From: Naegleria gruberi
Lineage: Eukaryota
Length of the DNA: 64,000 bases
Reading direction: 5' to 3' (one strand)
Assembly (NCBI GenBank): GCA_000004985.1
Contig: GG738905.1
Shown: one piece after another, positions 1 through 64,000 of the stretch
How the letters are laid out: each line of letters begins with the position of its first letter
Numbering within the stretch: the first letter of the stretch is position 1
Notes under the pieces: generated by a model
The model's input: the letters and a program-made list of their open reading frames with translations, nothing else
Database searches by the model: none
Told to the model about the DNA's origin: nothing
Made by a program: the position numbers and the translations under genes

Positions 1-330
1 TGATGAATGGATTTACGTGGATTCTCAATGGAGTAAGCCATGGTGTTAAATAAAATACTATTTTTAATTGATTGTTAATTTCGAAAATATTATTCCAAAT
101 GTTAATAAACTTTTATTACACTACTTTAATAATATAAACTAATATTGTAATTTAACATCAACAAGGCTTGATTTAATTATTTAAAAAAAAATATTAAAAA
201 TCCGATTCCAAGATGATCAATACAACAACATCATCAACAATAATAAATAAATCCAATAATAATAATACTCATCATCAACAAAGTAAATAATTTCGGAGCC
301 TCTTCTCTCATTAATGAACAATCACTTTCA

Positions 331-984
331 ATGCCAAACAATTCCCAAAAACAAAATTCAATGGAACAATATGATCCCGAATTGAAAAAGAAATTGAAAA
401 TATTAAAAAAGGAATATTTAAAACAAAAAGCAGAGTTGGAAAGATTGGCACAAATTGCACTTTGTCAACAAGAAGAATTAAAACAAAAAGATTATCAAAT
501 TAAGAAATATAAACAACAATGTGAAGAACAATCAATTAAACTTTCAGAATACGAATCACAATTACAAATAGAACGAGAATTATGTGAAGGAGCTATTAGA
601 ATGAAAAAATCACAACAAGGGACGGCGACAAATGTTGCTGTTAATAATAATCAAGAAAAGGAAAAATCAAATCAACCACTTTCAGATAATGATCTTTCTC
701 TATTATTATTAGATGAAGGATTAACAACGAAGGATATTATGGAAAAGACATATAAATATTTACAGGATGATACCTATACTTTCATGTTAAATACAGATGA
801 ATATCAGGAAGAAGAAACAATTTCATCACTGAAACAGGAAATTGCTGCATTGAGAGAGGAAAATTTCACACTCAGAGAAGAAAAACACAAACTCAATATT
901 GAAAAGGTACATTTATATGAACTAGTACATGATCTCAATCAGAATTATCTTCGTTCCCAACAACCAAACAATAACACAAATTAA
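331..984 (+). CDS. coiled-coil protein of unknown function (217 aa)
   Basis: Uninterrupted ORF with an A-rich context before the ATG. Heptad-like K/E/Q-rich sequence (KKEYLKQKAELERLAQ, ALREENFTLREEKHKL). No recognisable catalytic motif. Confidence 0.45.
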   Translation: MPNNSQKQNSMEQYDPELKKKLKILKKEYLKQKAELERLAQIALCQQEELKQKDYQIKKYKQQCEEQSIKLSEYESQLQIERELCEGAIRMKKSQQGTATNVAVNNNQEKEKSNQPLSDNDLSLLLLDEGLTTKDIMEKTYKYLQDDTYTFMLNTDEYQEEETISSLKQEIAALREENFTLREEKHKLNIEKVHLYELVHDLNQNYLRSQQPNNNTN

Positions 985-1051
985 CTTTTTTGTAATCCAT
1001 TATCAATATGAAACACGTGTTCAAGTTAAAAAAAGAATACTTTGAAAAAAA

Positions 1052-3145
1052 ATGAATTACATTAGACAGAGATTTTTATTGGTTGTTTTGTTGTTGGTAA
1101 TTGTTAGCACTATACCTTCTTCGGAATGTAAAATTAACAAACAAGAATTTGATCCAAATAATTTTTTTAACTTTGTACAAATAACAGATGTTCATATTGA
1201 AGATTTCACATCATTGTTAAATAGACCTTCATTTCTAAAGGAAGCACAAGAAAGGTACAATGATTATATTACACTAACTCAGAATATATTACCAAATTTT
1301 GTAAAACCTCATGTAATAACAATAACAGGTGATTTAACTCATGCAATTGCTCTGAATTTTGCTAACAGATCATTGGACTGGATTGACCGAAAGATAAATA
1401 TCTATGTTCCTGGACAATGTGAAGAACAATGGGAGTTTTATTCAAATATTACAAATCTTGCTAATGAACAGTTAGTTAATTCAATGAAAAATTCACACAG
1501 CTCAATCAAGATTGTTTATCCATTTGAGGAGGATATTTCAAATCAAAGAATATTTGATTTACCAGGAAACCATGATGCATTTGGTGTTAGTAATAAGATG
1601 GATGAAAACAAATGGCTATTTTTGAAATATTCTAAAAGTGCAAAGTTTTTTAATAACGGTCAATTTTATGTTTTTGATTTGAAAAATAATTTTGGAAAAT
1701 TTAGATATTTAATGTTTGACTCAACTCCAATAATTGGAAGTTATAGACCTGTGAATTTTTTCTCTTCAATTCAAATTTCACAATTGAGAAAACTTGAAGA
1801 ATTTTTGAGTAGTAACTCTGAAGGAATTTCACAAACATTTGCTTTTGGCCACTATCCATCATCAATGATTTCAATTATTGAGAATGATGGATCTGTATCT
1901 AATACTTATACAATTCAAGATTTTTACAAAAGATTTAATATTATTTCATATTTTAGTGGACATTTACATAAGGAATTCTTTGAAATGTCAAAATATATGC
2001 CAAAGAGTGGACATATTGAAATTCAAAGTCCTGATTTTAAAAAGGAGAGAAGTTTTAAAATTATAACAATGGATAATAATAGAATTGGGTTTAAGGATTT
2101 TACTGTTAGCGAACTGGAGAAAAAACCAGGAGTAATTATTTCGCATCCAAAGGATTGTAGATTTATCACTGATAGAGAGCCAAAAGTGTTCAATGATAAT
2201 TTCATTAGATTATTCATCGTTTATCCATATAATATTGAAAGTGACAAGTTGAATGTTATTGTAAAGCTTGATGGAAATGTTATGGATGAAAATCTCATAA
2301 TAACTAGAGGCCAATCCGAGTATAGAATCAATTTTGATTTCAATAATTTACCAAATGATTCCTCTATCCACAAAATAACTGTAGAATTTGATGGAAGCTC
2401 CATAGTTGAACATTTATTTACAAAGGATGATTCACTTTGTGAACCAGTAAATCTCTCACGCACAGATACAATAAGGTCATTTATTTCATGGTGCGTTTTG
2501 AGCTTGGATTGGAGAACAATATTTAGAGATGTTACTCATTACTCTTGTATTGCATCTGTATTCATATTATTAGCATCAAAATTTATGTTTTTAAGGAGAG
2601 TTACATTTATTGAAGTGATATCACTAGTGCTCCAATCTGTTTCTATGAGATATGGTCTTTGGTTTTTAGGAGTACTAACTGAAGATAATAGATTTGGAGG
2701 ATTACTCAATTTAACATACTTTTACTTTAATTCTGATCCAATCAATACACTAGAACCTATTCACAAATTGGAGCCATTCACTGCTCTCTCAGCTCATTTC
2801 AATAGAGTTACCATTATTGATGACAGCTCTCTATTTTTCACACTTATTGGTCCAACTTTCGTTTTCTCACATTTGGCAATTATTATTGGATACCTATTAT
2901 TGGAATGTCTCGACAGGATTGAAAGCAGATATCACAAAAAATATTTCAAATTGAGAATACTCTTATTTCTAATTATTTCCATTTCTCATATGGTTGGATT
3001 TTTCAATTTCTATAGAAAATATGTTAGATCATATGGCAAAATTGTCTTATTCACATCATTTAACAATGTAATGTTCCCATTTTTGAATATGTCAATAATG
3101 GCAGCTCGAACATACAACGATTGTACAAAGCAAAAAGTTGAATAA
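1052..3145 (+). CDS. TMEM62-like transmembrane metallophosphoesterase (697 aa): signal peptide, calcineurin-like phosphoesterase domain, C-terminal multi-pass membrane region
   Basis: N-terminal hydrophobic signal (LLVVLLLVIVSTIPSS). Metallophosphoesterase motifs are present in order: DVH (ITDVHIED), GDxxH (ITGDLTHA), GNHD (LPGNHDAFG), GHLH (FSGHLHKE). Several predicted TM helices follow in the C-terminal 250 aa, which is the architecture of TMEM62. No intron. Confidence 0.6.
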   Translation: MNYIRQRFLLVVLLLVIVSTIPSSECKINKQEFDPNNFFNFVQITDVHIEDFTSLLNRPSFLKEAQERYNDYITLTQNILPNFVKPHVITITGDLTHAIALNFANRSLDWIDRKINIYVPGQCEEQWEFYSNITNLANEQLVNSMKNSHSSIKIVYPFEEDISNQRIFDLPGNHDAFGVSNKMDENKWLFLKYSKSAKFFNNGQFYVFDLKNNFGKFRYLMFDSTPIIGSYRPVNFFSSIQISQLRKLEEFLSSNSEGISQTFAFGHYPSSMISIIENDGSVSNTYTIQDFYKRFNIISYFSGHLHKEFFEMSKYMPKSGHIEIQSPDFKKERSFKIITMDNNRIGFKDFTVSELEKKPGVIISHPKDCRFITDREPKVFNDNFIRLFIVYPYNIESDKLNVIVKLDGNVMDENLIITRGQSEYRINFDFNNLPNDSSIHKITVEFDGSSIVEHLFTKDDSLCEPVNLSRTDTIRSFISWCVLSLDWRTIFRDVTHYSCIASVFILLASKFMFLRRVTFIEVISLVLQSVSMRYGLWFLGVLTEDNRFGGLLNLTYFYFNSDPINTLEPIHKLEPFTALSAHFNRVTIIDDSSLFFTLIGPTFVFSHLAIIIGYLLLECLDRIESRYHKKYFKLRILLFLIISISHMVGFFNFYRKYVRSYGKIVLFTSFNNVMFPFLNMSIMAARTYNDCTKQKVE

Positions 3146-3155
3146 ACTCCATTAT

Positions 3156-3983
3156 CTACTTGTCAAATACCTTTAGACTTTCCAAACAAGAGTCAACTAT
3201 TAAACTCTCCTTTGAATTCAACTTGTTAACTAAATCATATAATTCCTCACTATCCTTGAATCCTTGCTCAAATTTTTTCAACGTGGTTGCTATAAGTTTT
3301 TGATTTACAGGCATATTAAGATCTACTAAACTCTTGGTCGTTTGATTATTTAACGAGTTTTGCTGTTGTGATTGCATATATCTCAAATATAATTCATCCG
3401 TAGATGACATTCCATATCGTTGATTAATCTTTTCCTCTGGTTCTTCATTATTCTTTCGTTTTGCCAGCAGAACATCCACATAATAATACATGAAAACAGT
3501 GTGGAGAAATATTTGTTGTTCCTCTTTAGTACGTAATTGAGCAACAAGTCTTTGAAATTCAATTGTATGTTTAGCAAAATATTCTAAATTATCCTCAAAG
3601 AACTGTAAAGTATTAAAAACAAATGGAGTGAAATTTGCGTTTGGTAAAGCCTTTTTTCTTAACTTTTCCAAATTCTTTTGTTTCTTTTCTAAAATTTCAA
3701 TTTTTGTTAATTCCTTTTCCTTTTCTAACTTTTTAGCTTCCTCCTCCTCTTTTTTACTTATCTTTTCTTGTTGTTTTAAAAGCATGGTTAGGAAATCCTT
3801 TGTATTTGATTTATTTGCACTCGTCTTTTTTCTCTTTTCTTCCTCGAATTGTTTCATAAATTCCTCCAGGAAGGGAGCATTTAGTTTACTCTTTTCCGAT
3901 GGTTGTTTACTTGATGTTTTCATCTGAGGAAGGGAGGAATTCGGTTTTTTGATAGCAGTTTGTGGTTGTGCTCGTTTCTTCAT
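3156..3983 (-). CDS. K/E-rich coiled-coil protein, unknown function (275 aa)
   Basis: Long minus-strand ORF with charged low-complexity sequence (EEEAKKLEKEKELTKIEILEKKQKNLEKLRKK). Overlapping plus-strand ORFs look like antisense artefacts. Confidence 0.4.
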   Translation of the reverse strand: MKKRAQPQTAIKKPNSSLPQMKTSSKQPSEKSKLNAPFLEEFMKQFEEEKRKKTSANKSNTKDFLTMLLKQQEKISKKEEEEAKKLEKEKELTKIEILEKKQKNLEKLRKKALPNANFTPFVFNTLQFFEDNLEYFAKHTIEFQRLVAQLRTKEEQQIFLHTVFMYYYVDVLLAKRKNNEEPEEKINQRYGMSSTDELYLRYMQSQQQNSLNNQTTKSLVDLNMPVNQKLIATTLKKFEQGFKDSEELYDLVNKLNSKESLIVDSCLESLKVFDK

Positions 3984-63540: not shown

Positions 63541-63603
63541 TAAATAGTATCAATATTAAGATGTCATTATTATATTAAGATAATATTTTCTACATGAATG
63601 AGA

Positions 63604-63675
63604 TCCCGTGTAGTCCAATGGCTAGGATACCTGGCTTTCACCCAGGAGGTCCGGGTTCAATTCCCGGCATGGGAG
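63604..63675 (+). tRNA. tRNA-Glu (anticodon UUC), 72 nt, no intron, CCA not encoded
   Basis: Cloverleaf folds by eye: acceptor TCCCGTG/CATGGGA; D-stem GTCC/GGAT; anticodon stem CCTGG/CCAGG with loop CTTTCAC; T-stem CCGGG/CCCGG with loop TTCAATT; discriminator G. Close to canonical eukaryotic tRNA-Glu(UUC). Confidence 0.9.
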
Positions 63676-63680
63676 GATAA

Positions 63681-63685
63681 TTTTT
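63681..63685 (+). terminator. RNA polymerase III terminator (T5 run) 6 nt downstream of tRNA-Glu
   Basis: TTTTT immediately after the tRNA 3' end (gataaTTTTTcatttt). Confidence 0.5.
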
Positions 63686-64000
63686 CATTTTGCTTTTTGG
63701 CCAATCAAAATCTCATAAAACACTCTGGCCCAAATTACTTCACGCAACGCCATTGGCTTTTTATGGAAATATACTCGGGTTACTGATAAATTTTAGGTTC
63801 GCTTGTGGCACATGAGATTAGTATCTTACTAGAAAAAATGTTAAAACAAGTGAAACGTATTTACAAAGCCACAAACCCTCAGCACCAACAAGTTAAAAGA
63901 TTTTTCACCACTTCTCTGGTCAATCATGAGCTCAACAACAACAAAATAACGATTTCCATTCCAAATCTTTCAGATTCGTCTCCTCTTCAACAAGAAGAAT

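Follow-up and report, generated by a model that had tools for sequence, protein, structure and literature searches.

Very short introns and a mixed gene complement in a 64-kb stretch that is in all probability ordinary nuclear DNA of Naegleria gruberi NEG-M

Does a stretch of DNA whose genes carry very short introns, and recall fungi, animals and amoebozoans at once, come from an unplaced lineage, from several organisms joined together, or from a known genome? This question is raised by contig GG738905.1, of which we analyzed a window of 64,000 nucleotides (nt; "the window" means this whole stretch, positions 1..64000) that a preliminary description, made from the letters alone, had read as a source of mixed lineage signals. 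We found that the window corresponds to a segment of a 290,827-bp nuclear scaffold of N. gruberi NEG-M. N. gruberi is a free-living amoeboflagellate of the Heterolobosea, within Discoba. The probability that the window is ordinary nuclear DNA of this strain, with the intron style and gene mix already published for it, is in our estimate about 97%.

An exact-sequence look-up carries most of this assignment. Fifteen proteins encoded in the window were identical, residue for residue, to RefSeq/GenBank proteins of N. gruberi NEG-M, and all of them (the longest being 1375, 925 and 897 aa) are recorded on that single scaffold; the identity to NEG-M is thus one at the protein level. Three intronless open reading frames (ORFs) were matched first (XP_002671477.1, XP_002671481.1 and XP_002671482.1), and seven of the 15 are spliced models that had been built from raw DNA. 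The same look-up returned no identical entry for the UBX, C2, amino-acid transporter, gene-finder Zn2Cys6, ThrE, spliced PHD and merged 61218-63540 models, because annotated starts or models differ (the annotated PCCB begins at an internal Met, and the annotated Zn2Cys6 gene has one intron). Such failures, together with an environmental contig (L003, described below) that is about 99% identical to the window over the Zn2Cys6 gene without being the same, could be taken to mean that the DNA belongs to another, unsequenced Naegleria species or strain. This is very unlikely, given that 15 proteins of up to 1375 aa agree at every residue, that no difference is seen in the exactly matched genes, and that the failed matches are explained by the differing starts or models.

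The composition of the window is in line with this origin. Its GC content is uniform (0.29-0.34 along its length), and ORFs are dense on both strands, with about 38 protein genes, one tRNA gene and coding sequence (CDS) over 79% of the window. This GC content and the density of 0.76 introns per gene (29 in 38) agree with the values published for N. gruberi (PMC8296547, Table 2), which are 33% GC and 1.7 exons per gene, or about 0.7 introns per gene.

Best matches, clustering and synteny show that the closest relatives of PCCB, catalase and the histone deacetylase (HDAC; through its syntenic N. fowleri orthologue) are heterolobosean. PCCB has its best matches in N. fowleri (89%) and Willaertia magna (85%), followed by other heteroloboseans such as Percolomonas (about 70%) and by alphaproteobacteria (about 69%). 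The catalase shares a 90%-identity cluster with those of N. fowleri and N. lovaniensis, and the models of the OGC-like mitochondrial carrier, HDAC and catalase are exact N. gruberi RefSeq proteins. Around the PCCB orthologue of N. fowleri, over 22 kb (L001; GCA_008403515.1, VFQX01000028.1), the gene order HDAC-PCCB-ThrE-PRKCSH is that of the window from 54.5 to 47.4 kb. The preliminary description had held that its mixed signals would not stand if the housekeeping proteins all fell into one well-known clade; PCCB, catalase, OGC, HDAC and the synteny do all lead to Heterolobosea, and the genes of the window agree in GC content and intron style and lie on a single scaffold, so the claim of mixed lineages fails. 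Its exclusion of Dictyostelium and nematodes was right, and N. gruberi lies outside the lineages that it considered.

An early-diverging fungus with short introns, either a zygomycete or a chytrid, could account for the "fungal" Zn_clus domain of Pfam, for fungal GH78 matches of 25-28% and for a chytrid PCCB match of 68%. It is contradicted by the exact protein identity to N. gruberi and by the best relatives of PCCB, catalase and the GH78-like protein, which are those of Naegleria and Willaertia, while both Zn-cluster homologues that could be located, an orthologue and a paralogue in tandem, come from N. fowleri. A fungal origin is therefore extremely improbable, and the synteny with N. fowleri argues against the RefSeq entries themselves being fungal contamination. 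Amoebozoan and nematode origins were rejected alongside it. Hardly any credence can be given, either, to a chimeric or contaminated assembly that joins several organisms. Such an assembly would fit the finding that the nearest non-heterolobosean relatives of single genes lie in very different groups (rotifers, bacteria and fungi for GH78), but the GC content is uniform, introns of the same size and donor type occur in "fungal-like" and "animal-like" genes, the matched proteins are all on one scaffold, the GH78-like gene is also present in Willaertia, and a block of synteny is common to N. fowleri. The DNA is not chimeric and its lineage is not unknown; the intron style and the gene mixture are already known for N. 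gruberi and signal nothing new.

The gene mixture itself was largely confirmed. All families named beforehand were found by Pfam, namely Zn_clus, Xi-GST, GH78-like, SEL1, Kelch, NHL, an NPC1-like protein with a sterol-sensing domain and no NPC1 N-terminal domain, a metallophosphoesterase whose C-terminal part is a membrane region, PCCB, mitochondrial carrier and catalase. The one exception is the label "HDAC8-type", since the scores (222-225 bits for chains of HDAC1/2, about 215 bits for those of HDAC8) do not discriminate between the subtypes; membership in class I is clear. The fungal, animal and amoebozoan features reflect the gene repertoire of a free-living eukaryote on a deep branch, wide in range and patchy in distribution; a few genes are genuinely odd in this respect, and the supposed hallmarks belong to families that Naegleria has retained or acquired. 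It has been reported that N. gruberi is over-represented in ancestral eukaryotic proteins (PMC6759080). The GH78-like gene has a top match at 59%, with Willaertia at 56%, bdelloid rotifers (Adineta, Philodina and Rotaria) at 48-51% and distant relatives in Streptomyces and fungi at 25-30%; N. fowleri does not occur among the matches listed. Horizontal transfer probably produced this distribution, which is a patchiness at the level of the gene and not the mark of a mixed genome.

With regard to the introns, simply screening for GT..AG pairs able to join ORFs was discarded as too unspecific, given that decoy hexamers joined ORFs in 12% of cases (GTAAGT in 39%). We used a dynamic-programming gene finder that combines codon log-odds, a donor/acceptor matrix and a length prior; settings with a weak intron penalty or otherwise more permissive fused neighbouring genes, so a conservative run was taken, followed by homology and hand curation. 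This resulted in 29 introns, all GT-AG, which interrupt 14 of the approximately 38 genes (37%). The proportion of N. gruberi genes with introns is reportedly about 36% (attributed to Fritz-Laylin et al. 2010). Lengths range from 37 to 145 nt (median 46, mean 52), and GC content is 0.22 in introns vs. 0.34 in CDS. The estimate of about 30 introns, most of 37-79 nt with modes at 41-48 nt, was close to what we observed (28 of 29 at 37-75 nt, 18 of 29 at 41-48 nt); the one long intron, the first of the catalase gene, is 145 and not 135 nt long. The donors named beforehand account for 20 of 29 (GTAAGT 13, GTATGT 4 and GTTAGT 3) and miss nine others (GTAGGT twice, GTTTGT, GTATGA, GTAAAT, GTAAGA, GTACGT, GTATGG and GTTTAT). 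Similarly, the YAG rule for acceptors holds for 25 (TAG 21, CAG 4) and not for the remaining four, which are AAG. Intronless genes of 2-4 kb were also borne out (4.1 and 2.7 kb, listed in Table 1, and 2.1 kb at 1052-3145; the MatE, PCCB and MAPEG genes are intronless as well), as was a codon usage that is AT-biased without being extreme, with a GC content of 0.26 at third positions and with AGG, CTG and TCG at 3.5, 4.1 and 4.5 per 1000 codons.

Sixteen of these introns are validated by seven models whose spliced products equal RefSeq proteins exactly. Six of the first ten models were exact, i.e., kelch (3 introns), mitochondrial carrier (3), NPC1-like (2), Xi-GST (1), SEL1 (1) and catalase (2), and the four-intron HDAC (XP_002671407.1) was the seventh. 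The validated set includes all but one of the four AAG acceptors, as well as the weak donors GTTTGT, GTATGA, GTAAAT, GTAGGT and GTATGG. One further intron (Zn2Cys6 intron B) is present in the RefSeq model XP_002671401.1, the three ThrE introns lie at positions conserved in N. fowleri, and Pfam domains run continuously over the predicted junctions of the amino-acid transporter, C2, ThrE and PHD genes. On the sense strand of genes, GTAAGT occurs 14 times, 13 times as a donor and once in an exon, vs. 11.7 +/- 3.3 copies expected in exons from codon-order shuffles; GTATGT is depleted in sense exons too (5 vs. 11.7 expected). The intron observation is beyond chance because of this depletion of GTAAGT, the RefSeq-exact splicing, the conservation in N. 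fowleri and the continuous Pfam domains. We assign these sequences to the U2-type GT-AG spliceosomal introns, of a very short class, because of their GT..AG termini, their GTRAGT-like donors and the restoration of frame or protein upon their removal.

The avoidance of GTAAGT in exons is in keeping with the idea that GTAAGT would by itself be a potent splice signal, in introns of about 40-50 nt that are AT-rich and headed by a strong GTAAGT-like 5' site. Together with the small intron size, this avoidance suggests that introns would be recognised across the intron and not across the exon. The fission-yeast-like branch points CTAAT and TTAAC that had been noticed are indeed present in seven introns. 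When the branch A was required to lie 8-30 nt from the intron 3' end and shuffles of each intron served as the null (n=29), neither CTAAT (3 of 29, P = 0.23) nor TTAAC (4 of 29, P = 0.07) exceeded expectation. In this small sample the looser motifs YTAAY (15 of 29 vs. 10 expected, P ~0.04) and YTRAY (18 of 29 vs. 11.9, P ~0.02) did so, which lends the idea weak support.

Two points weigh against regarding the window as typical N. gruberi DNA. The published mean intron length of 203 bp in N. gruberi (126-144 bp in N. fowleri) is about four times the mean of 52 nt in the window, where validated introns average about 50 nt, and CDS occupies 79% of the window vs. 57.8% genome-wide (PMC8296547, Table 2). 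The window is a gene-dense region. A tail of long introns, sampled better in data larger than this small window, could raise the published mean, and some of the long annotated introns may owe their existence to mis-annotation, a case in point being the 267-nt N. fowleri "intron" described below.

Two genes contain short elements of note. The PHD-finger gene reads as one ORF unless its intron is recognised, as this intron, the only in-frame, stop-free intron candidate in the window, leaves the frame open. Splicing restores CDRCDKWFHGRC and raises the Pfam PHD score from 31.8 bits (partial domain) to 41.1 bits (full domain). In the HDAC gene, a 24-nt exon (54275-54298, +) between introns of 46 and 42 nt carries the GGY of the conserved GGGGY motif, and it is kept in length and position in N. 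fowleri (L001 ~8334-8357, -), where the flanking introns are of about 63 and 52 nt. A HDAC model with a GAG acceptor gave no exact match, and the acceptor AAG at 53296 was adopted.

A still smaller exon is proposed for the Zn2Cys6 transcription-factor-like gene. The RefSeq model XP_002671401.1 starts at 26860, begins with MKNYYSGKQLPTCSRC, has intron B only and lacks exon 1; it holds only the second half of the Zn2Cys6 domain and scores 19.2 bits, where the gathering cut-off of Pfam Zn_clus (PF00172) is 21 bits and the expected spacing is CX2CX6CX5-12CX2CX6-8C. The upstream ATG opens MTDSKEFHPIACNFCRHLHKQ plus "TG", followed by GTAAGA. The sole canonical GT-AG join that brings exon 1 in frame with the main exon is a structure with a 2-nt exon, "TG", between introns A and B; a single 109-nt intron over the junction breaks the reading frame and was rejected. 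The resulting product, CNFCRHLHKQCGKQLPTCSRCATKGITC, is a perfect CX2CX6CX6CX2CX6C and scores 33.1 bits over profile positions 2-39, and it is only in this model that the domain is full. We are inclined, by a modest margin over even odds, to think that the gene is spliced through the 2-nt exon, as the restored frame and domain propose. Because the 5' splice site of intron B abuts the 3' splice site of intron A, the two introns would be removed one after the other. The junction sequence predicted by this model is AAACAATGTGGAAAACAATTACC, whereas that of the RefSeq model is TATTATAGTG joined to GAAAACAA; PRJEB23822 is an RNA-seq data set of N. gruberi (PMC6142364).

A full HMMER search with the large exon as query yielded 125 homologues. 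Those with intact N-termini share FHPIACxxCRKxHK+CDKxxPxCxxC, the spacing given by the 2-nt-exon model. Two homologues were located, the N. fowleri orthologue and its tandem paralogue. The best homologue, an N. fowleri protein with 43% identity, is annotated as ...HKK|LPSC..., without the third zinc-binding cysteine. In the DNA of the N. fowleri orthologue, 267 nt annotated as one intron (L004:2706-2972, VFQX01000007.1) can be read as two introns, of 68 and then 187 nt, on either side of a canonically flanked 12-nt exon, CAATGCGATAAG (QCDK); the three lengths add up to exactly 267 nt. Inclusion of this exon lifts the Zn_clus score from 19.5 to 37.9 bits and changes the junctions from ATGCATAAG-AAACTCCC (current annotation) to ATGCATAAG-CAATGCGATAAG-AAACTCCCAAG. 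The orthologue thus very probably carries the 12-nt exon. On either side of the exon, the introns of N. gruberi and N. fowleri are offset by 5 nt, so that the 2-nt exon resembles a reduced form of the 12-nt one.

A 2.6-kb metagenome contig, L003 (ENA ERZ929261, run ERR1078381), is about 99% identical to the window from 26.5 to 28.3 kb. It differs by a 12-nt deletion and a few substitutions, including one synonymous change in Zn2Cys6 exon 1, and indicates a very close relative of N. gruberi in an environmental sample. Its use as an informant on the 2-nt exon was dropped, its identity of about 99% being too close.

Both current annotations of the Zn2Cys6 gene, in N. gruberi and in N. fowleri, thus appear to miss tiny exons, which suggests that some "long" annotated Naegleria introns hide such exons and inflate the published means of 126-203 bp. 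The tiny exons are a side result that may be new. If real, the 2-nt exon would be among the smallest proposed in any eukaryote; together with the 12-nt exon of N. fowleri, it would then offer a natural test case of the minimum distance between two introns in a spliceosome system with introns of about 45 nt, and would make a case for re-annotating long Naegleria introns. By comparison, the main finding changes nothing, as it concerns a published sequence with a known intron style and gene mix. It does imply that ultra-short introns, "fungal/animal/amoebozoan" genes and about 33% GC, when found together, should bring Heterolobosea to mind, and that Naegleria annotations appear to miss very small exons.

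The coordinates of the genes, introns and other features are collected in Table 1.

Table 1. Features of the 64,000-nt window and the evidence for each model
Feature	Position	Strand	Introns and exons	Basis
Kelch-repeat gene	4042..5680	-	introns 5310-5376 (67 nt, GTTTGT..TAG), 5166-5209 (44 nt, GTATGT..TAG), 4745-4784 (40 nt, GTTAGT..TAG)	spliced 495 aa = XP_002671470.1; Pfam Kelch
UBX gene	9645..10290	+	intron 9994-10030 (37 nt, GTAAGT..TAG, contains TTAAC), needed for open frame	gene-finder prediction; Pfam UBX
MAPEG-domain gene	16303..17913	-	intronless	536 aa = XP_002671474.1
OGC-like mitochondrial carrier gene	18031..19074	-	introns 18987-19031 (45 nt, GTATGA..TAG), 18849-18918 (70 nt, GTAAAT..TAG), 18556-18596 (41 nt, GTAAGT..TAG)	spliced 295 aa = XP_002671475.1; Pfam Mito_carr x3
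NPC1-like sterol-sensing-domain gene	19252..22125	-	introns 21857-21906 (50 nt), 21464-21509 (46 nt)	spliced 925 aa = XP_002671476.1; Pfam NPC1_MLD, Sterol-sensing, Patched
C2-domain gene	22601..23705	+	intron 23015-23060 (46 nt, GTAAGT..TAG)	prediction; Pfam C2 (residues 59-160) spans junction
GH78-like alpha-L-rhamnosidase-family gene (2.7 kb)	23808..26501	-	intronless	= XP_002671477.1; Pfam
Zn2Cys6 transcription-factor-like gene	26755..28288	+	proposed: exon 1 26755-26819; intron A 26820-26876 (57 nt, GTAAGA..TAG); 2-nt exon TG 26877-26878; intron B 26879-26927 (49 nt, GTAAGT..TAG); last exon 26928-28288	proposed structure from sequence and Pfam Zn_clus
Aa_trans amino-acid transporter gene	30654..32621	+	introns, all GTAAGT: 31564-31608 (45 nt), 31839-31886 (48 nt), 32145-32192 (48 nt), 32341-32385 (45 nt)	prediction; Pfam Aa_trans (residues 274-569) spans four junctions
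Xi-class GST gene (CPWC motif)	32639..33656	-	intron 33361-33403 (43 nt, GTAAGT..AAG)	spliced 324 aa = XP_002671478.1; Pfam GST_N_2, GST_C_2
MatE transporter gene	33945..35699	-	intronless	584 aa = XP_002671479.1
SEL1-repeat gene	36705..38306	-	intron 37309-37383 (75 nt, GTATGT..TAG)	spliced 508 aa = XP_002671480.1
SET-domain / Rubisco-LSMT-like gene	39953..41506	-	intronless	= XP_002671481.1; Pfam
NHL-repeat propeller gene	41865..42899	-	intronless	= XP_002671482.1; Pfam NHL
Catalase gene	43027..44702	-	introns 44526-44670 (145 nt, GTAGGT..CAG), 44336-44396 (61 nt, GTTAGT..TAG)	spliced 489 aa = XP_002671483.1
PHD-finger gene	45129..46121	-	intron 45340-45387 (48 nt, GTACGT..TAG, contains TTAAC)	
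ThrE-family membrane protein gene	48922..50922	+	introns 50107-50154 (48 nt, GTATGT..CAG), 50552-50604 (53 nt, GTAGGT..AAG), 50669-50714 (46 nt, GTAAGT..TAG)	Pfam ThrE, ThrE_2; syntenic N. fowleri gene
PCCB (propionyl-CoA carboxylase beta chain) gene	50943..52592	-	intronless	XP_002671486.1 (549 aa) within ORF
Class I histone deacetylase gene	53066..54570	+	introns 53253-53296 (44 nt, GTTAGT..AAG), 53578-53621 (44 nt, GTATGG..TAG), 54229-54274 (46 nt), 54299-54340 (42 nt, AAG acceptor)	spliced 442 aa = XP_002671407.1
1375-aa protein gene, no Pfam domain (4.1 kb)	55256..59383	+	intronless	= XP_002671408.1
Possible single 760-aa gene	61218..63540	+	two adjacent ORFs joined via 40-nt intron 61944-61983 (GTTTAT..TAG)	prediction only
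tRNA-Glu (TTC anticodon)	63604..63675	+		ARAGORN; Rfam RF00005, 67 bits

Several further features deserve mention. An Rfam scan of the window returned the tRNA only. An intergenic GTAAGT...AAG segment of 57 nt (48649-48705, +), which precedes the ThrE start codon by about 220 nt, may be a 5'-untranslated-region intron. An ORF at 59904-61004 (DUF4419) and the next open frame are in the same frame with a single stop codon between them. Of the 582 positions of the Pfam RdRP profile, the ORF at 38475-39425 (+) matches no more than 375-465, the DLDGD motif included, and the space upstream of this ORF is taken by the SEL1 gene on the opposite strand; it has the look of an RNA-dependent RNA polymerase gene that is truncated or survives as a remnant.

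Compared with the NEG-M draft genome (Fritz-Laylin et al. 2010; PMC8296547, Table 2), the window is alike in its 15 identical proteins, a GC content of about 33%, about 0.7 introns per gene and overall compactness, and differs in the mean intron length and CDS density given above; at least one RefSeq model of the NEG-M annotation in the window (Zn2Cys6, XP_002671401.1) appears truncated. N. fowleri shares with the window, besides the gene order, the positions of all three ThrE introns and of three HDAC introns out of four (tblastn and direct reading), and its introns are of the same GTAAGT/GTATGT/GTTAGT style, at about 48-68 nt. It differs in that PCCB and ThrE are separated by three additional genes (SIMPL, actin and one without a domain; L001:11969-15533), that ThrE has two further introns, and that the first HDAC intron is lacking (L001 ~9500). 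In N. gruberi, PCCB and ThrE stand tail to tail, about 20 nt apart (50922-50943). As intron presence differs in HDAC and ThrE, introns have been gained or lost between the two species. The gene list of the Willaertia PCCB locus (L002) gave no obvious synteny with the window.

Schizosaccharomyces pombe has a CTAAY branch point, and its introns are thought to be recognised across the intron. Short-intron eukaryotes of this type resemble the window in their short AT-rich introns, GTAAGT-like 5' sites and YAG 3' sites; roughly every second intron of the window has a YTAAY-like motif 8-30 nt before its 3' site. The differences are that this motif is weakly enriched here, that four of the 29 acceptors are AAG, and that the lineage is unrelated.

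As for the tiny exons, a 1-nt exon is known in Arabidopsis (PMC4674806) and another in Fusarium CYP621A (PMC12940212), while mis-annotation is frequent for exons of 1-15 nt in plants (PMC8831610). Like these, the proposed Zn2Cys6 exon lies between canonical introns, would be needed for a conserved domain and was missed by automatic annotation. Unlike them, it belongs to a heterolobosean with introns of about 50 nt, and would measure 2 nt in N. gruberi and 12 nt in N. fowleri.

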